A program made the position numbers and the translations under genes. From assembly GCA_943788985.1 (NCBI GenBank), contig CALSSJ010000046.1, positions 1 through 39,451 on the forward strand: DNA of 39,451 nucleotides, given 5' to 3'. Source of the stretch: an uncultured Lentisphaerales bacterium. Lineage in GTDB: Bacteria; Verrucomicrobiota; Lentisphaeria; JABSQK01; UBA12247. Shown here piece by piece: positions 3,270-38,427 of the stretch (positions are counted from its first letter, which is position 1; each line of letters opens with the position of its first letter). The notes under the pieces are model-generated. The model was not told the DNA's origin and made no database searches. It saw nothing but the letters and a program-made list of their open reading frames with translations.

Positions 3270-4273
3270 ATGACCGAAAGAAACCACAGCCACGAGCAGC
3301 CAGCCACGCAGGAAAAGCAGCGTAGCCTTGATCCTTGGGGCCTGCTATCTGCGGCCCTTTTTATCGTCGCGATGATGACACTGGGCGGCTTCTTCGGCCG
3401 GTTCTGGTGGGCCGCTCGACCTCGCGTCCGAGCTCCGACTTCAATATGTGGAGTGCAGTCTGATCGCCGCGGCACTCTACGGCCTTGGGCCGACGCAAGC
3501 GCCACGCCGCCGCAGCGCTGCTCGTTGTCGCAGTGAACGCAGCGCTTATCCTGCCGATGTATCTCGGCAAAAGTCCGCCACCGGCACCGCTTCCTGTCGC
3601 CTGCTGCTCTGCAATGTCAAAAGCGATAACACCGAGTATGAGCAGTTCCTTGACCTTGTGCGCGAGGAGCAGCCAGACGCCATCGTTCTGGTCGAGCTGA
3701 ATCAGGCTTGGATCAACGCCCTCTCCGAGCTCAGGCGAGACTATCCGCATCACCTCGAGCATCCAGAAGAGGACGTCTTCGGCATCGCCTTCTACAGCAA
3801 ACTCCCGGTGCAAAGCATGGCGATTAAAACCCTCGGCGAAGTGAAGGTGGCCTCGGTCCATGCGGTCATCAATCACGGCGGCGTTGCCTGGAATCTCATC
3901 GGCACTCACCCCCCTGCCGCCTGGCGGGGGCGATTACTGGCGTTGGCGCAACGATCAGCTCGCTGAACTGGCAACCTTTATTCAGGGTTTGGACGGGCCG
4001 GTGGTGGTCCTGGGTGACCTCAACGTCACGCCGTGGTCTCATTACTTCCGCACCTTCGCTCGTGATGCCCAGTTACGCGACGGTGGCAAAGGCTTCGGGC
4101 TGCAAATCAGCTGGCCCACCTACTTCCCGCCACTCGGCATCCCGATTGACCACTGCCTAGTCTCGCCCCAGGTAGACGTCCACGACCGCCGAACCGGACC
4201 AGCGATCGGCTCCGACCATTACCCGGTCATCATCGATCTCGCGGTGGAGGATCAGCTGCCTGCGAGGCGATAA
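3270..4273 (+). CDS. Membrane-anchored endonuclease/exonuclease/phosphatase (EEP) family protein, frameshifted
   Basis: N-terminal hydrophobic helices, then RLLLCNV, PDAIVLVEL, VVVLGDLNVTPWS, PIDHCLVS and GSDHYPV, spread over ORFs 3270-3536, 3448-3966 and 3860-4273. Confidence 0.85.
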
Positions 4274-26400: not shown

Positions 26401-27725
26401 GAACCTCGGTCACTTCCTGATTCTCAGGCACCAGCTCGTAGTGCATCGGAACCAGCTTGCCAGCCTTTCGCTGTAATAAGGTCAGGCGTACGCGCGGCTT
26501 GATCACCGGAGCTGACGGGGCGAAAAGATGCAACGTAAAGTTCACGGTTTCACCGGGCAAGGCCAAGTCACGGTCACAGCGCAGATCTACCTGTAGGCCA
26601 GTGGCCTGGTGCAGGGCCCGCGTAAAATTTCGGGCGCTGTCCTCGTAACCCGCGGCCAGCCCCGCATCGAGCTGCTCCGAGGCTTGGGCAGCATAGCGGG
26701 CAGCGGCCAATCCCGGAACGAGATGCAACAGCAGGCGGTCTGGGGCCCCCCTTCATGTCGCGCGCAGCCGACGCGTTGATCCGAATTTTGTCCGCCCAGC
26801 GACCGCTAGCTGCGACGTTGGCACTGGTCAAGGTTTCCGGTCCCCGGAGAAACTTGTCGAACGGGTCGCTGCCTTCCGCTGGATCATCGCCCAGTTGATT
26901 CTGCAGCAAGGATAGGGAGACGGATTTCAAGCCACCGCGCAGCCGCGGCAACTCCAGCGAGCGATACGAAGCGCGCGCCATGACCGCCAGTTGCGCGAAA
27001 GACTTGCCAGATGGTGCCTGCTTTGCGACATCGATCGAGTACTGGCGCTTGCCAGGCATACGCTCACCGACCAGAAACAGCGCATCTGGTCGCCACAGGG
27101 CTTGCCCAGTCGTCGGAAAGCTGCTGAATCCGCAGCGCTCGTAGGCGCGTTCGACGAGCACCCCCAGCGCGCGCTGCTGACCATTGGCCTCGGCCGACCG
27201 CCCGGTGAAATGGGTCAAGACGACGTGCGGGCGATAATCGCGCATCAGCGTCACCAGTTCAGCAATTGCGCGCTTTTCGTTCCACTGCATCAGCGCGTCT
27301 GTGGCATTCTTGCACTCGCCGACGTCCGGAAACCCCAAAAAAAACACGTCAGATTTCACAATCTTGGCCGCGGTCAATGCCTCCGCACTACGCAATACAG
27401 CTAGCGCGTCTCCGCGTTCCAGCCCGACTTGATTGGCACCGCGTTCGTTGCGGGTGATAAAAGCAGAGGCGACGTTCGCATATCTACGCTGCGACAAGTA
27501 GGCCAGCAGCGCCATCGGCTCATCCCCCGGCTGCAGCCCCACATAGAGAATGCGAGCCGACTCGGATAGACGCGAAAGACTCTCCTGCACAGCTTCGAAT
27601 CCGGCAACTTCGTTGGGATCATCCAGCCACACGGTCCCTTTCATCAGCCTCTCCTCGGCAGAAAGCGAGCAGCAGGCCAGGCACAACAGCAAACAGAAGG
27701 CGCGTCGAGTCAAGATGGTATTCAT
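23426..27725 (-). CDS. Large exported protein (~1430 aa): PIG-L/LmbE-like domain with degenerate metal site, beta-rich and GATase-like middle, Pro/Val/Glu linker, C-terminal LptA/OstA-like domain; one frameshift at 26746-26751
   Basis: Signal peptide MNTILTRRAFCLLLCLACCSLSA. LmbE-like ILYVGLQPGDE, TRNERGANQVGLE, MRDYRPHVVLTHF. Middle region DGGRLVVMHQ, VTDERA, HPLLTQPN, DFDHWQVERG, VPGAWRLLANLL. C-terminus ITADAVEYD...AIFIGNV...AEGNVTIV...ATGDKAIYD...IVLSGKP. Removing one G from a G6 run fuses ORFs 26574-27725 and 23426-26728. Confidence 0.8.
24060..24303 (-). repeat. Intragenic 57-bp (19-aa) tandem repeat in the proline-rich linker
   Basis: GGCTCGCGCTCCACAACAACCG at 24126, 24183 and 24240 (period 57), encoding units like EPPAVVVEREPPPAVVVKA. 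Confidence 0.9.
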
Positions 27726-27943
27726 TCGGCGGGGAGGGCCTACGCACGGGCGAGGAGTAATCGGAAGTATACGCCTACCTCACGGCATGGTCAATCCGAT
27801 GGATCGCAAGGCAACCAGCTTGGACCACAGATCTCGGCTACTGTTCCCCTGAAATCTCATATCAGCCCGTGGCAAAATTCGGTCGCATGGGCAACAAGCC
27901 CCCGGCGACTGACACGATGGACACCATCCAAGACGCGGTTTAT

Positions 27944-30309
27944 GTTTCAATCCACGCCCCCCCGAGCGGGGGGCGACTTGGGCAGTCTAGTGATACACCC
28001 CCGACAATCCCAGACGTTTCAATCCACGCCCCCCGAGCGGGGGGCGACTATCTGAAGCTGAATCAGAACAGATGCTAGGTGTGTTTCAATCCACGCCCCC
28101 CGAGCGGGGGGCGACCTACTGGCGGGGCGACGTTGTCGCTCTCGCTGGCGTTTCAATCCACGCCCCCCGAGCGGGGGGGCGACCTAGCCGACGGCGACGG
28201 CGACCAAAACTTTATCGTCGTTTCAATCCACGCCCCCCGAGCGGGGGGCGACGTACGAAAGGGAATGAACTGAAACACTAGGACATAAAGTTTCAATCCA
28301 CGCCCCCCGAGCGGGGGGCGACCGCCTTCATTGGCCTCCTTTATGGCGGCCATATTATCCGGTTTCAATCCACGCCCCCCGAGCGGGGGGCGACAAGTTG
28401 AGCAAGCTGGCCGCGCAGTGCACTACATGGTTTCAATCCACGCCCCCCGAGCGGGGGGCGACACAGGCTCGTATCTTTACCTGGCCAACATCCACGGCGT
28501 TTCAATCCACGCCCCCCGAGCGGGGGGCGACGACCCCGTGCGATCACTTCGCCGCTAATCCGCTCGGTTTCAATCCACGCCCCCCGAGCGGGGGGGCGAC
28601 CCTCGCCTACCCAGAGCGGGTGTGCGGAAGTTATCAGTTTCAATCCACGCCCCCCGAGCGGGGGGCGACTATGGAGAACGGGAGCCGGGTAGGCTTCGTC
28701 GACATAGTTTCAATCCACGCCCCCCGAGCGGGGGGCGACCCTATAATACGTGCGAGAGACCGTGAGACTGTGAGTTTCAATCCACGCCCCCCGAGCGGGG
28801 GGCGACCTGACTGCAAGATTATTACTGCCATCCCACTGACCGGCCAGTTTCAATCCACGCCCCCCGAGCGGGGGGCGACCCGAAGCCGCGCACATTCCAC
28901 CACCACCGACTCAGTTTCAATCCACGCCCCCCGAGCGGGGGGCGACCCTCGTGACCAGAACGGTTGCCTTGATTCCGAGCGGATCAGCGGCGTTTCAATC
29001 CACGCCCCCCGAGCGGGGGGCGACTAGCCGTATTTCACTCACTCGCCCGAGTCGCTTACCGCCGCTTGTTTCAATCCACGCCCCCCCGAGCGGGGGGCGA
29101 CGTATCATCGCTGGCGCTCTGCTATTGGCGAGTTTCTCCAGCCGTTTCAATCCACGCCCCCCGAGCGGGGGGCGACGGGCGCGCCGAGGATACTTGCGCC
29201 GAGTCGCTGCCCGAGCTTGTTTCAATCCACGCCCCCCGAGCGGGGGGCGACTCTCCTTGATCTGTGCCTGCGTCTTACCAGACGGCGCGTCAGTTTCAAT
29301 CCACGCCCCCCGAGCGGGGGGCGACGGCGACAGTCTGTAATCGTACCAAACACATTGCGCCGCCGGGCACAAGTTTCAATCCACGCCCCCCGAGCGGGGG
29401 GCGACCCTAGCGCAGATCGACGCGGCTAGCCTGCTTGCTTCTGAGGCGCGAGTTTCAATCCACGCCCCCCGAGCGGGGGGCGACCCGCACGCCAGCCTGG
29501 GGCACCCCTCAACCCATCAGTTTCAATCCACGCCCCCCGAGCGGGGGGCGACCGCAATAGCGATTGCGCGGTGATTGCCCGCTACGATTGTTTCAATCCA
29601 CGCCCCCCGAGCGGGGGGCGACGCAAGATTTCCAACTCTGTGCGCAGTCACACGACGCCAACGGCAGTTTCAATCCACGCCCCCCGAGCGGGGGGCGACA
29701 TGCGGCATCAGCCGCGTGGCTTGGTCAGTCCGCACGACGTTTCAATCCACGCCCCCCGAGCGGGGGGCGACGAAGACACCTGGTACATCCTAGCGCAGCG
29801 AAGAGAGCCCGGTTTCGTTTCAATCCACGCCCCCCGAGCGGGGGGGCGACGTGCCTCCGATCGCAGCTCACCTGTAGATCCTGCAGGTTTCGTTTCAATC
29901 CACGCCCCCCGAGCGGGGGGCGACGGGCTGGCGATTAGCGACTTGCTGCCAGGCTTCGGCAGCAGTTTGTTTCAATCCACGCCCCCCCGAGCGGGGGGCG
30001 ACCCGCCAGGTGGTATCGTTTGGGCCAGGATGCTACTCCGCCTTGATTTTGTTTCAATCCACGCCCCCCGAGCGGGGGGCGACCATGATTGCACGGTAGA
30101 TCAGGACTGGAGTTCGCCGTAAGACCCGTTTCAATCCACGCCCCCCGAGCGGGGGGCGACGCCACGTGCAGTCATGGGCGTCGTTGCTCGGCTTAGCCGC
30201 GTTTCAATCCACGCCCCCCGAGCGGGGGGCGACCCTCGACCGGGATGCGCATCCTCCCAAACGCGCCGCTATAGCGGTTTCAATCCACGCCCCCCGAGCG
30301 GGGGGCGAC
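27944..30309 (-). CRISPR. Type I-C CRISPR array: 33 repeats, 32 spacers
   Basis: The 33-nt repeat reads GTCGCCCCCCGCTCGGGGGGCGTGGATTGAAAC on the - strand (8-bp stem, ATTGAAAC end). Six copies carry an extra C or G in a homopolymer. Spacers are 34-48 nt by manual count. A possible degenerate trailer repeat ends at 27909, with a further 34-nt spacer at 27910-27943. Confidence 0.99.
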
Positions 30310-30496
30310 TGCCAGCTCACAAGTCGCTGACAGCGAGCAACATAGCATGCGGATTCCGCGAACCTGCTGCAGTTTGAGAGATTTTACGCTTACCCTATGG
30401 CAGGAAACTACATAAGTTGTTGTATGTCAGAGAGCTACGCCAATTGCGAATCTTCTACGTGAGGCGATGGGCGCTTAGGGTTCGCGATCGCGCGAG
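30310..30496 (-). promoter_or_regulatory. CRISPR leader
   Basis: Non-coding stretch between the cas2 stop and the first repeat; contains GCGAACC (30358), GCGAATC (30446) and inverted GGTTCGC (30479). Confidence 0.85.
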
Positions 30497-30791
30497 CTAG
30501 AGAATCAAGGGACCCGTCGGATCATGTCCTGGCTTCGCTCCGATATGCTCAACTCGCCGCTTCCAATTGTCGCCGAGAAAGTAGAAGCGCAGGCTGTCGG
30601 TGTCGAGGTTAATCCGGTCGAGCAGCATCTTTTTAAAGCGGAGAAACCGATCGGGTTCGATGAGGCACTCGAAGACGGAATATTGGACTCGCTGTCCATG
30701 GCTTTCACATAGTTTCGCGACCCGGCGCAGTCTTGCTTGGCCACCAGAGTCCTTGGGTAGAAACGTCATAACTGACGATAACCATCATCAT
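30497..30791 (-). CDS. cas2: CRISPR-associated Cas2, with a one-base frameshift at 30755-30757
   Basis: MMMVIVSYDVST starts at the cas1 stop, then after one extra base continues KDSGGQARLRRVAKLCESHGQRVQYSVFEC...DSLRFYFLG. Confidence 0.93.
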
Positions 30792-31810
30792 CGCCAAATG
30801 AACCCTGGGTAGGCATCGAGTTCACCCCGAATCCGCTGCGCCAGTAATCGTGCCTGCTGGTGAATCACAATGCCCAACTCCATTCGTTCGTCCAAGTAGG
30901 GGTGGCGGATGACTTCTTGTTTGCGTTGTTGCCAGGCGATGAGAACGAGCTTTCGCGCGTCGCCGGAGAGTAGGACCGCGCCAGCCTCGTCGGTGGAGAA
31001 GTCGCGGGGGTTGAGCTGTTTTCGATTGAGGAGCGTGAAGGCAACGCGATCTGCGAGGACCGGCCGGAATTCTTCGCACAAGTCCAAAGCGGCGCTTGGC
31101 CGGCCAGGGCGCTCGCGGTGCAGATAGCCAACCGCCGGATCGAGTCCAACGCTTTCTAGGGCACCAACGCAATCGCCAAGCAATAAGGCGTAGAGAAACG
31201 AGAGCAGCGCATTCGCAGGATTCTTGGGCGGTCGGCGCGTTCGACGCTCAAAGCGGAATTCTGGTTCGGTGCGGGTCATGATGGCGTCAAAGGCTCCGAA
31301 GTAGGCGCGGGCGGCCTCTCCCTCCACTCCCCTCACCTGGGCGAGTTCATCGCAACGCCGCGCCCGCCGGAGGCAGGAGCGAAGCGTCTCAGCGGCGGCT
31401 GAGAGCTGCACGTTTTCGCCACGATCGCGCAAAGCGCGAAGTAGTTGGGTGCGGCTGTTTGCGATCTTCGCAGAGATCACATCCCGCGCGATGGCAAGCG
31501 TGATTTCGGCGCAATCTGTGCAGCGATACTGGGCTCGACGCAGGAGTACATTTCCCTGCGTGGGCCCGGCAACTCGGGCCTGAAAACGCCCATAGCGACT
31601 GAGGAAGCACAGCTGTATATTCCGACTGGCACAAAACGTCAAGAACGGCGTGGAGCAGGCGACGCGCCCGAAGCAGATCACAGATTGGATCGTGTGAATC
31701 GGGACGCGGAGCTTGACCTCGTTCTCAATCTTCACGACGACCGTTTCACCTTGTTTATTGAGCCGGGCGTCTTCGTTGGTGATGTAGAGCGTGTTAAGGA
31801 TTCGTTTCAT
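30788..31810 (-). CDS. cas1: Type I-C Cas1
   Basis: MKRILNTLYI, GNVLLRRAQY, RGVEGEAARAYF, RRPPKNPANALLSFLY, GLDPAVGYLH, ALDLCEEFR. Confidence 0.97.
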   Translation of the reverse strand: MKRILNTLYITNEDARLNKQGETVVVKIENEVKLRVPIHTIQSVICFGRVACSTPFLTFCASRNIQLCFLSRYGRFQARVAGPTQGNVLLRRAQYRCTDCAEITLAIARDVISAKIANSRTQLLRALRDRGENVQLSAAAETLRSCLRRARRCDELAQVRGVEGEAARAYFGAFDAIMTRTEPEFRFERRTRRPPKNPANALLSFLYALLLGDCVGALESVGLDPAVGYLHRERPGRPSAALDLCEEFRPVLADRVAFTLLNRKQLNPRDFSTDEAGAVLLSGDARKLVLIAWQQRKQEVIRHPYLDERMELGIVIHQQARLLAQRIRGELDAYPGFIWR

Positions 31811-32468
31811 GGTCAGCGAGATGGCTCTGGAGTTGCTGGGTGAGCCAGGCGGGAGCGGCCTGTTTGCGCGCTACGGGTAAGCAGATGGACAGCAGGGAAC
31901 AGTTCTTGCATTTTGGTTCTCGTTTGGCTGTCGGCATCTGCCCGCTGCTGAGCATGGCATGAATTGCCTCTGCCGTTTCCCGAACCAGAGCGCGCAATTC
32001 TGCTCCGAGCTCGACTTGGTGACGTCGTCTGGTTTGTCCGTAGAACAGCGCGGCCGCCGGTATACTGCAGCCAAACATTTCCTCCAAGCACATCGCCTGC
32101 GCACAGAGCTGCAAGTCGTCGCAATGGTCGCGCTTGGGGCGGCCGCGTTTGTACTCGATGGGAACCGATCGCCAGCGGCCTGGCCAATCGCGTACAGTGA
32201 CACCGCAGTCGTCCCGTATGAACTCTACGACATCGGCTCGGCCGGCTAACCCCAGAGCCCGCGATGCCAGTGGCACGGCGCGGACGATGCGCGAATCGCC
32301 CCGGCTCTCGAGGCCGGGACGATCTGCGCATTCATGCAACTGTTGCCCCTGGGTTGTCAGCACGTTCTCTGCCCATTCCTGGTTGAGATGAATCAAGGCA
32401 CACTGCCGCGGACAGAATCCATAATGCTGCAGAGCAGACAGCATAACGAAGTCTGATTCGTCGTACAC
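31794..32468 (-). CDS. cas4: Cas4 nuclease
   Basis: LSALQHYGFCPRQCAL, GRADVVEF, PIEYKRG, QLCAQAMCLEEM, KCKNCSLLSICLP; four Fe-S cysteines present. Confidence 0.96.
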   Translation of the reverse strand: MYDESDFVMLSALQHYGFCPRQCALIHLNQEWAENVLTTQGQQLHECADRPGLESRGDSRIVRAVPLASRALGLAGRADVVEFIRDDCGVTVRDWPGRWRSVPIEYKRGRPKRDHCDDLQLCAQAMCLEEMFGCSIPAAALFYGQTRRRHQVELGAELRALVRETAEAIHAMLSSGQMPTAKREPKCKNCSLLSICLPVARKQAAPAWLTQQLQSHLADHETNP

Positions 32469-32502
32469 GAGCCGTCCTTTGCGGTGCCGTTCGCCGCTGC
32501 CG

Positions 32503-33357
32503 TTACAGGCGTTGGTCGAGCGTCACACCCACCGGAATACCCGCGGTATCGACTGTGATTGCGTAGTCCGCAAAAGCCCGCGGCACTTCCACCCCGGGCG
32601 TAGTTGCCACGCTGACTCGCTCAAATAGTGCGTGGGCCGGCGCATTGCCCAGTTTCGACTCATGTTTGAACACAAGGAGCCGACGTGCGGACATCTCACC
32701 GCGGGATGCAGAGCGGTCCAATTCGAATGCCTGCTCGAGCCCTTTCCAGAACAGTGCAAGGTCGTCCTCCGAAAATCCCGTCTGATCAGCCAGGTGTGGA
32801 TTGATGAAGCCATGGCAGCGGTACAGCGCGTAGGGGACGGTGAACTTGCGTCCCATGGTACGGTTACCACCGTCCTGCTTTTCGGCCTCCTTTTCAGTCG
32901 TCACCGCACAGCGGGTAACCGCGTGTTCGGAGGCAATGATGGGATCTATGCTCCGCGAAAACGCCAACTGAACCGGCCCCCGCACTTGACCGCAGTTGAT
33001 TTGGGTGGTCATGACCGCGCCGAAGGTGCGGATGTCGTAGAAGTTCGCGCACATCCAGTCGCGTGCCCGGTTGACCGTGGCCTGTTTGGCTTTCTTTGGG
33101 TCCAGGCCCAGGTCTGTGTACGCTCGCTGATGTTGGTTGTTGAGCACCGCCTTTTCCTTGACGTAGATGTCGTGTGGCGACTGTTCGCCCTTGACCAGTC
33201 CGACGAAGTTGCGAATCTTGCGTTTGAGGCAAACATCGGTGACGAGCCCATGCCCTGTTTCGGGATCCACGCGCGGGAGATTGCCGGCATCTGGATCCCC
33301 ATTTGGGTTGCCATCGCGGACATCGAAGAAGAAGACAAAGTCGTAACGGTTGTTCAT
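32503..33357 (-). CDS. cas7c: Type I-C Cas7 (Csd2)
   Basis: [55 protein letters not shown]. Confidence 0.97.
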
Positions 33358-33725
33358 GGTTGTGGCTCCTGATCAGTGGTTTTCTTGGTGAAGAGATTCT
33401 GGCGTTGATGGTAGTAGCCCAGCGCAAACAAGCCTTGATCGCTCAAGCCTAAGTGGCGGGGAAACTCAGCGAGGGCACCGGCGATGGCCTGAATGCGTTT
33501 CTCGGCAACGACCTTGCGGCCACCTTCGAGCTTGCTGATGTGGTGTTGGCTCATGCGAATGAGACGCGGAAAGACCACCGCTGGCGTTGCCGAAGCCGCA
33601 CTGAAGTAGCGATCCTTGATCGTCGCGTTGAGACCCGGCAGGGCATCCTCTTGGGCCTTCTCCAACGCCGCAAAAAGTCGGCCTAGATGATACGCAGGTT
33701 CGGGGCGGGATTCGTCAAGTGACAC
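33354..33725 (-). CDS. cas11: Probable internally translated Cas11 small subunit within cas8c
   Basis: AAGGAGG (33731-33737, - strand) lies 5 nt before an in-frame GTG at 33725, giving a 123-aa product starting [19 protein letters not shown]. Confidence 0.75.
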
Positions 33726-35076
33726 GTCGACCTCCTTGTTGTAGTTTCGAATAAGAATGGCTTTGAGAATGGCAGCACGCGCATACGGGATGGTGCGGTC
33801 AGCACGAATGCGACGAATGACGGCGGCAAACAATGCCTGAGGATAGGCCGTCTGGGTCAAGACGCTACGCAGCAGCGCTCCGCCCAGTAGCGGCGGAATT
33901 TCCTTCGTGTCGCGCGCGGTCTCCTTTAGCAGCCGCCACAGAGGCAGATGCTCTAGGGTCTTTCGGCCCACTGACGATGGCCAACTCCCGCTGGTGCTGA
34001 ATCACTGCGCCGAGTTGCTGCGCCACGGTGCCGGTCTGCCAAAAGCGAATCGAGATCCGCCCTGCATTCGGCGCCAGGCAGAGAATATTAAACCCGACAT
34101 CGGCATCTGGAATTCGCTCCAAACCATCGACCAACTGCTTCATTGTTTCGGCGAGTTCCCGCGTGGTGTCCTCATCCTCTGACTTTTTCGGTCCTTCGAG
34201 GCAGTAGTCGAACAGCGTTTCCGCCGTGGACGGAGCATCTGCCCAAAACACACAGGTGTCTCCGGCAACCTGTACCCGATGCCGACCGCCGCGTTCCAAC
34301 AGCCGGTTTAACGCCGTCCCGTACTTGAAAGCAGACTCCACGCCAACCGGGCCGTTGTAGCTTTGCTTGTAACCGTAGCTCTCTACGGCATCGAAGTTGA
34401 AGCTGACAACCAAAGCACCGGCGCCTTGAGCGCCATTTACTCCCTGGATTTTTGGCGTATGCGTCGCGGCAATTACTGCGTCTTCGCCAGTTAACAGGCA
34501 GGTGCCGACGGCCCCGTCGTGACTGCCGCTTATTCTCGCCTGAAGAGCCGGAAGATCATGTAAGAACGCCTGGGTGCCTCGGCCCACGCGCACCACACCA
34601 AAACACCCACTCACATCCTCCAAAACCGATAGGTCGGCTGCCGCCAGATCCCAGGTGCTGAGGAAAACACAAAATGCCGAGAAGGCGGGTGTATCAATCT
34701 CCGGCTCTAAGGCAAACATAGCCTCAATGTACGCCTGATGGGCTCCTGCACAGCGGGCTGTCTTCTTCTCTCTATCAGCCTCCGCGATCGTTTCGAGATT
34801 GACATAGCCGAGCATGTAGTCGGTCCGATCCCAGCCGAAAAGACTGGGATTCAGGCCACTGCCTGAAGGCTTCGCGGCCCCTGGTACAACCATGGGATGC
34901 GATCTGAGATTCTTGCCATCGCTCTCCCGCAGGTCATGGATGCCGATCAGCGAGCCATCCTCACGGATGACCACTTCAAAGGCGATCTTCTGCACCGAAA
35001 AGCCCATGGGGGCGATGCCGGAGTTCGGGTCGGAGGCAAGGCGGTCGTAGTAGTTACAAAGCTCATGTAGGATCAT
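33354..35076 (-). CDS. cas8c: Type I-C Cas8c (Csd1), one frameshift near 33956-33958
   Basis: [43 protein letters not shown] in ORF 33865-35076; [33 protein letters not shown] in ORF 33354-33971. Confidence 0.95.
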
Positions 35077-35777
35077 CGCCGCACCTCGCAGTCGTCGCCG
35101 CCAGGCACCTCAATGACCCCGCCGGACATCACGGGGCGAAAGAAATGAGGGGTGGGCTGAACCTTGGCGCCGTCATTCGAGCGCACCACCTTTCCTTTCT
35201 TGTCGAGGACAAAGTCGATGTCATTGAGCATCCAGCCTAGGTCTCGCTCTCCGGCCAGTTGGGGCGCTGGCTCCGGCAGCGGATCTTCAGCCCACGAGAA
35301 ACTGGCAGGGAACTCCCTACACCCCAGATACGGGTGATGAAAGTACTGGCCACGTTGAGCGCGACGCCGGAAGATTTCCAGATGCTTTTGCGCCGGATCA
35401 GTCCCGGAAACTACATCGAAAAATGCCTGAATCACGTAGTCTACATCCCGCAAGACCGTGGCCGCCCGTTGCTGCCGGTCGTCCTCGACAGCAATCCCCA
35501 TCGGGCTATGTAATCCCCCAGCCATGATAGCCGCTGTAGGCTTTACTGCCTTGGAGGCAACCTCATTTCTGCGGATGTTGGAAAACCGGATGGGTGCCAG
35601 GACATGGATTTTCTGGATCCGCCAGCGAATCTCTGGCTTCCAGTAAATGGCTTCCAAGATGCCACGAGCAGCGGACGGCGTGATCACGTCATAGCTTACC
35701 CGCTCCGCCTTCATTTCCGGTCGCGTGAAGCAGGCCCAGTCCCCCCAAACGCGCAATCGTATCCCAAAATTCCCCAT
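35073..35777 (-). CDS. cas5c: Type I-C Cas5 (Cas5d)
   Basis: VWGDWACFTRPEMKAERVSYDVITPSAARGILEAIYWKP, IRRNEV, PYLGCREF, DLGWML. Confidence 0.97.
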   Translation of the reverse strand: MGNFGIRLRVWGDWACFTRPEMKAERVSYDVITPSAARGILEAIYWKPEIRWRIQKIHVLAPIRFSNIRRNEVASKAVKPTAAIMAGGLHSPMGIAVEDDRQQRAATVLRDVDYVIQAFFDVVSGTDPAQKHLEIFRRRAQRGQYFHHPYLGCREFPASFSWAEDPLPEPAPQLAGERDLGWMLNDIDFVLDKKGKVVRSNDGAKVQPTPHFFRPVMSGGVIEVPGGDDCEVRR

Positions 35778-35798
35778 AGCTTTGTCTCCTCTGTTCTA

Positions 35799-38011
35799 TC
35801 AGATGATGGTTTCTTTGGTCGGCAGCAGGCACCCTGCGCCCAGATCTTCGGTATCAATGCCGGTATAGGGACCGTAACAGTCCTCTCTTAGCAACACCCA
35901 CACGCCATGGCATTCGACAATTGCACCCGCCGCATCCAGAGCTCGTTGTTCATGGTCGTGCACCGAGACCACGTACCGCTGCAGGCGACGCCAAGTCTTG
36001 GCGTCTGGTGGGTAGTCGCTATGTAGGCTGTCTGCCAGCTTTTTCCCCTCGGCAGTCCAAGGCACGACCACACTCACGCCCGCTTCGCGTACGATGCGGT
36101 ACCGGTCGTTCATCGTACGAAACTGATACTTGAGCTTTGCGGGGTTCGCAGACAGGCATTCGAGAACGCGCTGACCGTCCCACTGGCCTTGTCTACGCCA
36201 GTAGTAATGGTCGAAATACGCGGCAATCGTCCGGGGGCTGAGTACATCCGTTTCGGGCGTAATCAGTTCCTTTGCCGTTTCCATTGAATTACGCAAGTGC
36301 CCGCACGGCGGCAGATGCTCTGAATCAAACCAAACGACCCGTCCGATATCCAGTCGCCCTTCCCGATTACAGCGCCCAGCGGCTTGAACCAGCGAATCTA
36401 AGCCACAGGACGCCCGAAATACGACCGGAAAGTCGATATCCACACCCGCCTCAATCAATTGCGTTGACACCACTCGGCAGGCAAGGCCTGCCGTGAGGCG
36501 AGCCCGGATTTCAGCCAGCGAACTCGTTCGGTGTTGCGCACACATGCGGGTACTCAGGTGAAAGACTGCCTCCCCCCCGCCCAAGCTTTCATATAACTCG
36601 CGGGCATGGCGGCGCGTATTGACGATACAGAGCACTTGGTACTCGCTGGCCAGCGCGACCGTCAGTTCCGGGTCGCGCAAGACGCCGGCTTGCTCCACCC
36701 TCGTGCGCCGCAAGGCCGCATGTAGTGCCTCGGGATTCTCGACAATGTGCCGCGGCCTCCGCAGTCCAATGGGAAAATTACGACGCTGCTCAATTGCAGG
36801 CTGGGTCGCACTGCAAAGCACGATACTACAGCCATACTCATCGACCAATTCCTGCAAAGCCAGCAGCGTTGGCTGCAGTAGTTCCACTGGTAACGCCTGT
36901 GCCTCGTCCAGCACAATCACACTATTTGCGATGCGGTGCAGCTTGCGACAGCGACTTCCCGATTTGTAAAGAGCGACTCTAGAAGCTGGACGTTCGTGGT
37001 CACAACGATGGGGGCATCCCAATTCTCCGCCAGAAGTCGCGTACGAGTGGTCGCATGCTCAGCTGCAAGGTTGCTGTGGTGCTCGAGGACAGTGCCAGCC
37101 GGCACGTCACCAAATGCGCCCCGATAAACATCTGCATTCTGCTCGACGATACTGGTGAAGGGCATAGCAATAATCACCCGCACCTTTTCATGGGTAACTG
37201 CGTGATTCAGAGCAAACTGCATGGAAGACAGCGTCTTACCCCCACCTGTCGGCACACACAGCGTAAAAACGCCTGGAGATTGTGGCGCGGCCTGGCGACA
37301 TAAATTCAGCACGTGCTGCCGGAGGTCATGTACCGAGCCACGGCCACCAATGCTCAAATCCTTTAAATGCCCCCGCAGGCTTCCCGCCAACTGCCCAAGC
37401 GTGGGTGGGGATAGCGCTCGGCGTTTCGCCCGGTCGGGAGACATGAATGCCTCGGTGCACAGAAAGTCAGCGTCCACCAAGCATGAGAAGATCATCCTTG
37501 CAAACAATGACACCTTGAACGAACAGGTTTCAGTTGTTGGTGCCACGCGGAAATTGGGCTGCGGCAATCGCTCGTTTTTCAACCAACTGGCGGCAGCATC
37601 CTGCCAAGACTCAACTCGGCGTTCAAGACGCTCCCGCAGCACGCCGCCGTTCCCGCCATCCCAGTCCGCCAAGCCAGCATGGTGCCCAGCAATCACATAG
37701 CTCATGAGCCTCCCCCAGTCGCCGAATGATTCGGCCGCCAACTGAGCGCCCGCGGTGGAATGATCCACTCGCATGCCGTTTCCAGTGAGGTCACCGACGT
37801 GGGGATCTCCCGCACGAGATAGGTAGTCCTGAAAGGCATCCGAGAATTTTCCAATGTCGTGATATCGCCCAGCAATTCGCCCCCATTCCTTGGCGCCAAA
37901 ACCGGCTGCGAACTCCCCAGCCAAGGTCTCAACCTCCGCTAGGTGCTGTTCAAGGCGCTCCCAACCATCCTGCGGGCCCTTCTTTGTGTGCGCCCAATAC
38001 ACTCCTGGCAT
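35799..38011 (-). CDS. cas3: Cas3 HD nuclease-helicase, one frameshift near 36958-36960
   Basis: WAHT, LEQHL, YHDIGK, DHSTAGA, IAGHHAGL, LVDADF, PTGGGKT in ORF 36917-38011; LDEAQ, STQLIEAGVDIDF, QAAGRCNREG in ORF 35799-37022. Adding one G restores NRGSRCRKLH. Confidence 0.96.
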
Positions 38012-38427
38012 TTTTGCTCCTATCGCCCTCAGCTAGCTACCGGCCTCGTGCGGCCAACGTTCAGCTCAACATAGCCGCATTTGATCACACATCTAGCGGC
38101 ACCTTGAAAATAGAAAAAACTAGAGAAATGAGTACTTTTTCTTAAGCATATCATGGCTCTAATTCACCGCGTTCAACAGTGCTGACTTGAGTTTTCACCG
38201 CCGTACTGCCGCTCCGCGAAGAACGTCTCTGACGTCTCCTTCTGGTCCGAACCTCAATAGTGTCGCAACCCGACAACTGCAACAATCTGGCCCCGGCCAT
38301 TCACCGTCAGGCTCAGACATAGATTGTGATCCGGCGGCAATTACTGCGGTCCGAGGGGCTCGCCTCGGCCGCCCGACACATCTGGACGGACTCTTGAGCC
38401 AAGCCAGCGTAAGCGTCCGATCTGCAA

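Follow-up and report, generated by a model that had tools for sequence, protein, structure and literature searches.

What sets the length of the spacers that a CRISPR system adds to its array, and what could make that length change partway through the history of one array? The question is raised by a type I-C CRISPR-Cas locus of an uncultured marine Lentisphaerales bacterium, located on contig CALSSJ010000046.1 of GenBank assembly GCA_943788985.1. This contig, analyzed as a whole (39,451 nucleotides [nt]) and hereafter called the window, belongs to a binned genome of 48 contigs, 4.58 Mb, and 83.6% completeness. Beneath a single leader, the array carries an older block of spacers of ordinary length and a newer block of much longer ones; this length step is real and statistically extreme, and it occurs in an otherwise standard type I-C locus. 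We propose, at a probability of somewhat less than one half (about 0.45), that this is a single real array, extended from the leader side, and that the end of the incoming DNA away from the protospacer-adjacent motif (PAM) ceased to be trimmed to size while cutting at the PAM end continued.

A step in spacer length within a type I-C array

A regular-expression parse of the whole window recovers 32 spacers (S1-S32, numbered from the trailer end), with lengths of 38, 34, 34, 36, 37, 39, 35, 36, 35, 36, 37, 34, 40, and 34 nt for S1-S14 and of 45, 43, 42, 42, 41, 47, 46, 35, 37, 44, 39, 45, 41, 44, 48, 44, 40, and 43 nt for S15-S32. All 32 lengths and coordinates equal those listed in a first-pass annotation of the window. 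The abrupt switch that it had described between S14 and S15 is upheld by a least-squares change-point analysis, which places the change at exactly this junction with a statistic that 0 of 20,000 permutations match (Mann-Whitney p=2.6e-5). Since length shows no trend with position inside either block (Spearman rho of -0.03 in the older and -0.007 in the newer one), the change is a step and not a gradient. Two spacers of normal length, S22 (35 nt) and S23 (37 nt), lie inside the newer block. The blocks also differ in base composition, with a G+C fraction of 0.614 in the newer spacers versus 0.558 in the older (Mann-Whitney p=0.03), that of the whole genome being 0.583.

The sense of the type I-C repeat and the position of the cas operon upstream put the leader at the high-coordinate end, which makes S1 the oldest spacer and the long spacers the newer ones. 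Repeat and operon layout thus confirm both the subtype and the leader-end direction of growth assigned earlier. Logan contigs of four marine-metagenome runs (X1, X2, X3, and X7, from three studies) were compared with the window over 27500-38200; in X1, X2, and X3 there are contigs that run from the final repeat, or from the leader, into cas2. The genes run in the order cas3-cas5c-cas8c-cas7-cas4-cas1c-cas2, followed by leader and array (30497-38011 being upstream, on the - strand), and comprise the type I-C set, to which no cas6 belongs, with matches to TIGR01863, TIGR02589, TIGR01876, and TIGR03640 alongside cas4, cas2, and a cas3 with HD nuclease and helicase parts. The repeat, GTCGCCCCCCGCTCGGGGGGCGTGGATTGAAAC on the - strand, is 33 nt long and of the type I-C form (~32-33 nt with a GC-rich hairpin); it begins with GTCGCC and has the 3' end GGATTGAAAC, and the 3' end of a type I-C repeat gives the CRISPR RNA (crRNA) an 11-nt 5' handle. 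Spacer length is the type I-C trait that the newer block does not show: spacers of this subtype are narrowly distributed around the low to mid 30s.

The first-pass annotation had the repeat unchanged throughout the array. An identical 33-mer does recur in 27 of the 33 repeats, but the other six (R1, R4, R10, R17, R27, and R29, of which three lie in the older block and three in the newer) are lengthened by a single C or G within a homopolymer and look like one-base errors. These six, the frameshifts in three cas genes, and a split Exo_endo_phos gene (see below) are what could be cited if the step were to be explained as an artefact of sequencing or parsing. Such errors, however, amount to ~1 nt, whereas of 18 successive spacers 16 are longer by 4-13 nt, and the repeats lie at exact positions, so that the chance of an artefact is next to negligible. 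The earlier argument that one-base errors are unable to give such a shift is sound, the step being 6.5 nt and the repeat differences a single base.

How far the newer block departs from type I-C practice is apparent from the arrays parsed at 144 loci around Cas1 relatives in collections of genomes and metagenomes. Those whose repeat has a canonical type I-C end, 49 in number, form the comparison set (1,344 spacers), and have mean spacer lengths of 32.5-36.1 nt, standard deviations (s.d.) of 0.46-2.10, and a longest spacer of 40 nt. A BLAST search of 400 other genomes of the same phylum with the array gave 21 further array rows, of which the 19 with a full-length repeat have means of 32.2-34.8 nt, the other two having a cut repeat consensus. 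Both sets agree with the earlier statement that spacers in the mid-30s are the type I-C norm. The older block (mean 36.1, s.d. 1.9) sits at the upper edge of this norm, which is a usual property rather than a formal subtype criterion, and the newer block is an extreme outlier: 12 of its 18 spacers exceed 40 nt, compared with 0 of the 1,344 in the comparison arrays. No close relative was found in the genome and metagenome collections searched, the best Cas1 identity being 52% in genome_contigs and, in metagenome_contigs, 56% over the full length and 58% for two partial matches. The exact repeat was found neither in metagenome_contigs nor in the genome's own GTDB family, of which it is the sole member; the repeats at loci L103 and L181 differ from it by one base. 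In the open-access literature, covered at the level of titles and the starts of abstracts, we found no report of a switch in spacer length within an array.

Protospacers and the position of the extra bases

We took a run contig to hold a protospacer if it matched a single spacer and continued into non-repeat sequence on both sides. In such contigs TTC, the type I-C 5' PAM, stands directly 5' of the crRNA-sense spacer for S1, S4, S9, and S13, and we infer the same flank for S15. The contig for S22 (35 nt) has CTC, and S12, flanked by GAC in one X1 contig, is an exception to TTC. The targets of S12 and S13 (spacers at 28740-28847) lie head to tail, ~3 nt apart, on one X1 contig, and these neighboring spacers are thus taken from adjacent stretches of one element. 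Since the TTC-flanked protospacers are contiguous, including that of S13, which matches over its full 40 nt, the length variation of the older block lies at the PAM-distal end. Mapping of the protospacers in this way bears out the TTC motif of the first-pass annotation and a full-length match for S13; S15 apart, it leaves the other long spacers unplaced. Among the contig ends listed, 5 of the 14 older spacers have a protospacer contig and 1 of the 18 newer ones, namely S22, a short one. Short-word BLAST of the 32 spacers against the genome's own 48 contigs found no self-target, only chance-level matches of 16-21 nt, and the search of the 400 other genomes of the phylum gave repeat-to-repeat matches, with no protospacer among the matches listed.

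The placement of S15, the first long spacer, comes from an overlap with an older one. Over their first 16 nt, S9 and S15 are reverse complements of each other but for one mismatch, so that the target of S15 is the S9 site on the opposite strand, the two being back to back. Each spacer reads through into the flank of the other and shows TTC directly 5' of both; contigs of X2 and X3 carry the S9 protospacer, confirm its TTC flank, and run on into diverged S15-like sequence. By these mutual flanks, S15 starts at a TTC PAM in the right orientation, and its extra 10 nt lie at the PAM-distal end. Among the spacers of at least 39 nt, 0 of 18 have an internal TTC at the place where a retained PAM would fall, and 1 of 18 has a GAA at that of a flipped PAM.

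That S15 should target the S9 site on the other strand is expected of one array, or one lineage, facing one phage family, and weighs against an accidental join of unrelated arrays. The same geometry is also that expected of acquisition primed by S9, which brings in a further alternative: the older spacers would have been acquired naively and the newer ones by priming from Cas3 fragments, or from some other substrate with differently processed ends. Target variants mismatched at spacer position 1, beside the PAM, exist for S4 (28184-28219; X1) and for S9 (X2 and X3), and these may be escape variants able to prime acquisition. Primed and naive spacers are not known to differ in length in the type I systems studied. 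The route would, moreover, need to have switched once and then stayed switched through 18 acquisitions, and we consider it quite improbable.

Which change might have lengthened the spacers

In the type I-C system studied, Cas4 cuts only the PAM end, and cellular DnaQ-like exonucleases are believed to trim the 3' overhang of the non-PAM end; loosely bound Cas4 slows this trimming, and the non-PAM end integrates first, at the leader side (available text of bioRxiv 10.1101/2022.05.30.494039). We propose that, before the change, Cas4 would have cut the PAM end beside TTC and cellular 3'-5' exonucleases would have trimmed the non-PAM 3' overhang to the Cas1-Cas2 footprint, to give spacers of ~35 nt. 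After S14 the PAM-side cut would have been kept and the non-PAM end no longer trimmed to the footprint, and new spacers would come out 4-13 nt longer and more variable, with occasional normal ones (S22, S23). The likeliest cause would be a trans-acting change, either the loss or alteration of a host exonuclease or a move of the locus to a new host, and the long crRNAs would consist of a normal seed and 5' handle with extra PAM-distal bases. The larger spread of the newer block (s.d. 3.4 versus 1.9), together with S22 and S23, is more in line with incomplete trimming than with a switch to another fixed ruler, which should give a narrow new peak.

Several suggestions of the first-pass annotation find their place here. 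That the array records a change in adaptation is our best reading, at the strength stated at the outset and with the continuity across S14/S15 as its soft spot. Different trimming nucleases, one of the options it named, fit the PAM-distal extra bases of S15, the one long spacer that could be placed. As to DnaQ-like exonucleases, the genome holds a sole PF00929 match (L194, at C10:61929-62414), of 33 bits, which is the weakest best match among the 60 of 61 genomes of the class that have one; all 14 genomes of the same order have a best E-value of <=5e-13. This low score offers a weak exonuclease lead, and is confounded by the completeness and the indels of the assembly. The proposal of one extra Cas7 in an elongated Cascade draws no support from the lengths: in the newer block, (L-35) mod 6 falls in all six classes, and the lengths are spread evenly over 39-48 nt without 6-nt steps.

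A number of observations weigh against incomplete trimming as the explanation. S15 is the sole long spacer placed against a target, and among the run-contig ends listed there is no protospacer for any other spacer above 37 nt besides S13 and S15. In BLAST searches the whole array had no match among 50,697 phage records, and among 72,556 plasmids it had 17, which match array to array and include no protospacer; exact scans of IMG/VR with S13 (40 nt) and 25 nt of S15 returned 0 matches. No contig of the four runs covers S14/S15, the Logan contigs breaking at the 33-nt repeats at a depth of 2-3, so that the continuity of the blocks rests on the assembly and the S9/S15 overlap; most of S15-S32 likewise have no array-context contig among those listed for the four runs at this depth. 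No experiment among those consulted gives a shift of +6 nt, and the reported effects of Cas4 loss are small where a figure is available, with a length mode moved by +1 nt in the Synechocystis type I-D system without Cas4 activity (PMC5896167) and, in the available text of PMC6547450, no effect on length when the Cas4 activity of a type I-G fusion is lost. The low PF00929 score, for its part, could stem from the 83.6% completeness and the assembly indels.

The spacer ends raise a further difficulty of the same kind. S20 (29326-29372) ends with GTCGCC, S26 and S27 start with GAAAC, and S28 starts with AAAC (S26-S28 at 29772-29968), so that four ends in the newer block copy the adjacent repeat end, a number that 9 of 20,000 shuffles reach; furthermore, 5 of the 18 newer spacers start with AA versus 0 of the 14 older ones. 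The PAM-proximal junction may therefore have changed too, and simple under-trimming predicts neither feature. S27 and S26 share their first 6 nt, as an overshooting spacer-side cut would give; mis-placed integration cuts would account for S27 only, and not for the ends of S20, S26, and S28. At the 3' end (crRNA sense), CGAGG recurs in S10 (28601-28636), S15, and S32 (30234-30276), and 5 of 32 spacers end with AGG, which may reflect a PAM-distal sequence preference like that of a type I-B system. Taken together, the repeat-copying and non-random ends suggest that integration is less exact in the newer block. Easier unwinding of the duplex end is not indicated, the AT fraction of the three PAM-proximal bases being 0.48 in both blocks by hand count.

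The adaptation proteins encoded at the locus were considered in turn. Cas4, whose alteration had been suggested, keeps in alignment the N-terminal Cys and the D..VEF, EYKRG, and CxxCSLxxxC motifs, and retains all the active-site and PAM-pocket residues named for the solved type I-C complex; residue 29 is Asn, where a 90%-conserved Glu stands in homologs. Cas4 deficiency would show in missing nuclease or Fe-S residues, abolished PAM selection, and spacers in random orientation; none of these is seen, the last two as judged from one long spacer (S15). A plain Cas4 defect thus appears an unlikely cause of the long spacers, since Cas4 looks intact with its nuclease, Fe-S, and PAM-reading residues kept. 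An altered Cas2, another of the earlier options, is probably an assembly error: the frameshift is absent from X2, a contig of which encodes a full Cas2, and Cas2 was set aside as the culprit.

The first-pass annotation had also raised acquisition by another Cas1-Cas2 in trans, and a second module with a longer ruler, whether chromosomal, plasmid-borne, or phage-borne, could have added the newer spacers. Binned genomes often miss mobile elements, and this one is 83.6% complete; however, cas1, cas2, cas4, and the array each occur once in its contigs, with no second copy of any of these found. CRISPR integrases usually act on the leader and repeat of their own system, and S15 keeps the TTC PAM of type I-C and the correct orientation. 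A module acting in trans is therefore very improbable.

Cas1 is the component on which a different account would turn, namely that the system's own Cas4-Cas1-Cas2 has an intrinsically relaxed ruler and always made spacers of ~40-48 nt, the 14 short trailer spacers having their origin in a different array of identical repeat, through repeat recombination in the cell or through an assembler merging the arrays of two strains. The Cas1c of the window aligns end to end with the Cas1 of the solved A. halodurans type I-C Cas4-Cas1-Cas2 complex (8d3l, E=3e-94; see also 8d3m, 8d3p, and 8d3q), a system with the same gene set and order, the TTC PAM, and a repeat of the type ending in ATTGAAAC, whose Cas4 nuclease and PAM-pocket residues are common to both. 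In that complex, Tyr49 caps the 22-bp duplex (available text of bioRxiv 10.1101/2022.05.30.494039), whereas Cas1 here has Arg49, along with R16, N197, and Q325 of its own at positions where homologs have Y (52 of 54), D (53 of 54), and R (54 of 54), i.e., Y16R, D197N, and R325Q; the codons of these last three residues are covered by contigs of other runs without difference. Against a role of these residues, the Tyr49 column is Tyr in just 12 of the 54 homologs, and arrays are normal both in the two homologs with Arg in this column (L043 and L099) and in many that have N, Q, H, P, or V there. Nor is the overall divergence unusual, Cas1 deviating at 5 of 84 conserved columns when the 54 homologs have a median of 3 and a maximum of 11, reached among homologs whose arrays are normal, with 7 of them deviating more. 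Cas1 was accordingly set aside as the culprit, and R16, R49, N197, and Q325 may serve as leads, not as evidence.

For the join that this account requires, one may point to the long block being the one physically attached to the leader and the cas genes, and to the want of any run contig bridging S14/S15. Further, a 97-nt contig of X7 comprises a repeat, a 35-nt spacer absent from the window, and a repeat (aligning at 29218-29253 and 29968-29996). Strains also differ in this region, since the window is left at 27911 by flank contigs whose depth is 7-11, that of the cas genes being 2-3. The S9/S15 overlap, on the other hand, speaks for a single array, and the combination of 48 contigs for 4.6 Mb with indels suggests a long-read assembly, in which single reads would span the 2.4-kb array. 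On balance we hold a relaxed ruler combined with a joined array to be rather unlikely. It is a shade less probable still, and in our view unlikely, that the Cas4-Cas1-Cas2 of this lineage evolved a relaxed or lengthened ruler and that its type I-C Cascade works naturally with guides of 39-48 nt.

The locus in its population and among known systems

The features of the locus are collected in Table 1. Three of its genes are interrupted in the window, and contigs of other runs differ from it at each break: for cas2, which lacks its first strand in the window, an X2 contig has one base fewer at 30751 and encodes the full-length protein; for cas8c, an X7 contig has one G fewer at 33956-33958, which would close the frame; and for cas3, a further C follows 36957 in an X3 contig, which would do the same. 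Outside the operon, an Exo_endo_phos gene is split into overlapping frames at 3379-3963 and 3845-4270 (profile positions 4-101 and 116-225), and several Pfam matches in the window are partial (FGGY_N from position 95, DUF445 over 2-77 of 368, and MYG1 over 1-64 of 318). The one-base differences in other runs, the split non-cas gene, and the homopolymers of the repeats point to indel errors across the assembly, and the cas2, cas8c, and cas3 frameshifts are probably of this origin rather than signs of a CRISPR locus in decay; they may also be genuine differences between strains.

Table 1. Coordinates of the CRISPR array, its parts, and the cas genes in the window.
Feature	Coordinates	Strand	Remarks
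Type I-C CRISPR array	27944..30309	-	33 repeats, 32 spacers; crRNA sense is the - strand
Older block, S1-S14	27978..28913	-	34-40 nt, mean 36.07, s.d. 1.94
Newer block, S15-S32	28947..30276	-	35-48 nt, mean 42.56, s.d. 3.36; 12 of 18 above 40 nt
Spacer S9	28532..28566	-	35 nt
Spacer S15	28947..28991	-	45 nt; first long spacer
Possible degenerate terminal repeat	27877..27909	-	16 of 33 positions match, the last 6 among them; by eye, weak
Leader	30310..30496	-	between cas2 and the first repeat
cas2	30497..30790	-	frameshifted near 30751-30757; N-terminus MMMVIVSYDVST in another frame
cas1c	30788..31810	-	340 aa; TIGR03640, 472 bits (cut-off 385)
cas4	31794..32468	-	TIGR00372, 133 bits; apparently intact
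cas7c (csd2)	32503..33357	-	TIGR02589, 384 bits
cas8c (csd1)	33354..35076	-	two frames in the window, split near 33956-33958
cas5c	35073..35777	-	TIGR01876, 166 bits
cas3 (HD nuclease and helicase)	35799..38011	-	two frames in the window, split near 36917-37022

At the trailer side, contigs of X1, X2, and X7 with a depth of 3-11 follow the window to 27911, 2 nt past the possible terminal repeat; X1 and X7 share the same continuation, unlike that of the window, and the X2 record likewise continues beyond this point. It appears that only some members of the population carry the CRISPR-cas island. The 97-nt X7 contig, which comes from a sample of a different study, represents another array with the same repeat and a spacer of normal length.

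Canonical type I-C spacers measure 32-37 nt, as against a mean of 42.6 nt and a maximum of 48 nt for the newest 18 here. Changes in spacer length have been described when stand-alone Cas4 is inactivated or mis-expressed: in the available texts, a type V-A Cas4 experiment gave a tail towards longer spacers (PMC9419969), Cas4 and Csa1 of the S. islandicus type I-A system altered the length distributions (bioRxiv 10.1101/486738), and changes in spacer length with Cas4-1 and Cas4-2 of P. furiosus are cited (in PMC5896167, PMC9419969, and bioRxiv 10.1101/486738). The Cas4-inactivated type I-D and V-A systems, so far as these sources describe them, resemble the present array in their shift to longer spacers, length depending on the end-processing nucleases and the Cas1-Cas2 ruler. 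These Cas4 mutants are laboratory constructs that lose PAM selection, whereas here a natural array holds both states, Cas4 looks intact, and S15 keeps its TTC.

In the type I-B system of Haloarcula hispanica, spacer size is heterogeneous, the variation lying at the protospacer's PAM-distal end and depending on the sequence of that end (PMC5416893, available text). The PAM-distal ends of the present spacers also look non-random (CGAGG three times, AGG in 5 of 32), in keeping with such sequence-dependent variation; in H. hispanica, however, the spread is of a few nt around one mode and concerns all spacers, as opposed to the two-regime step in one array seen here. Engineered Cascades, for their part, accept lengthened guides by adding backbone subunits, as reported in the accessible portions of the papers on the E. 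coli type I-E (PMC5009729, PMC6859484) and S. putrefaciens type I-Fv (PMC4937334) complexes. In those the spacers were lengthened by design, whereas the present ones are natural, known from sequence, and without 6-nt steps. If loaded, the long crRNAs of this locus would need a Cascade able to take extra guide length, as the engineered complexes do.

The control of spacer length in Cas4-containing systems is only partly understood, and the division of labor between the Cas1-Cas2 ruler, Cas4, and exonucleases has been worked out mostly from in vitro studies and from laboratory mutants with small effects. The array described here is a natural one in which a normal and a long regime share a single repeat, leader, and cas operon, with the PAM apparently kept and at least one long spacer extended at its PAM-distal end. 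The locus offers a clonable and directly testable case for which component determines the non-PAM end. Provided that the long guides work, they would bear on the guide-length tolerance of the minimal type I-C Cascade, which is used in genome editing. Should the system instead have a relaxed ruler, the array would be a fossil record of an integrase changing its measuring rule, and the locus a natural source of long-guide type I-C effectors and of a length-informative Cas1 variant.

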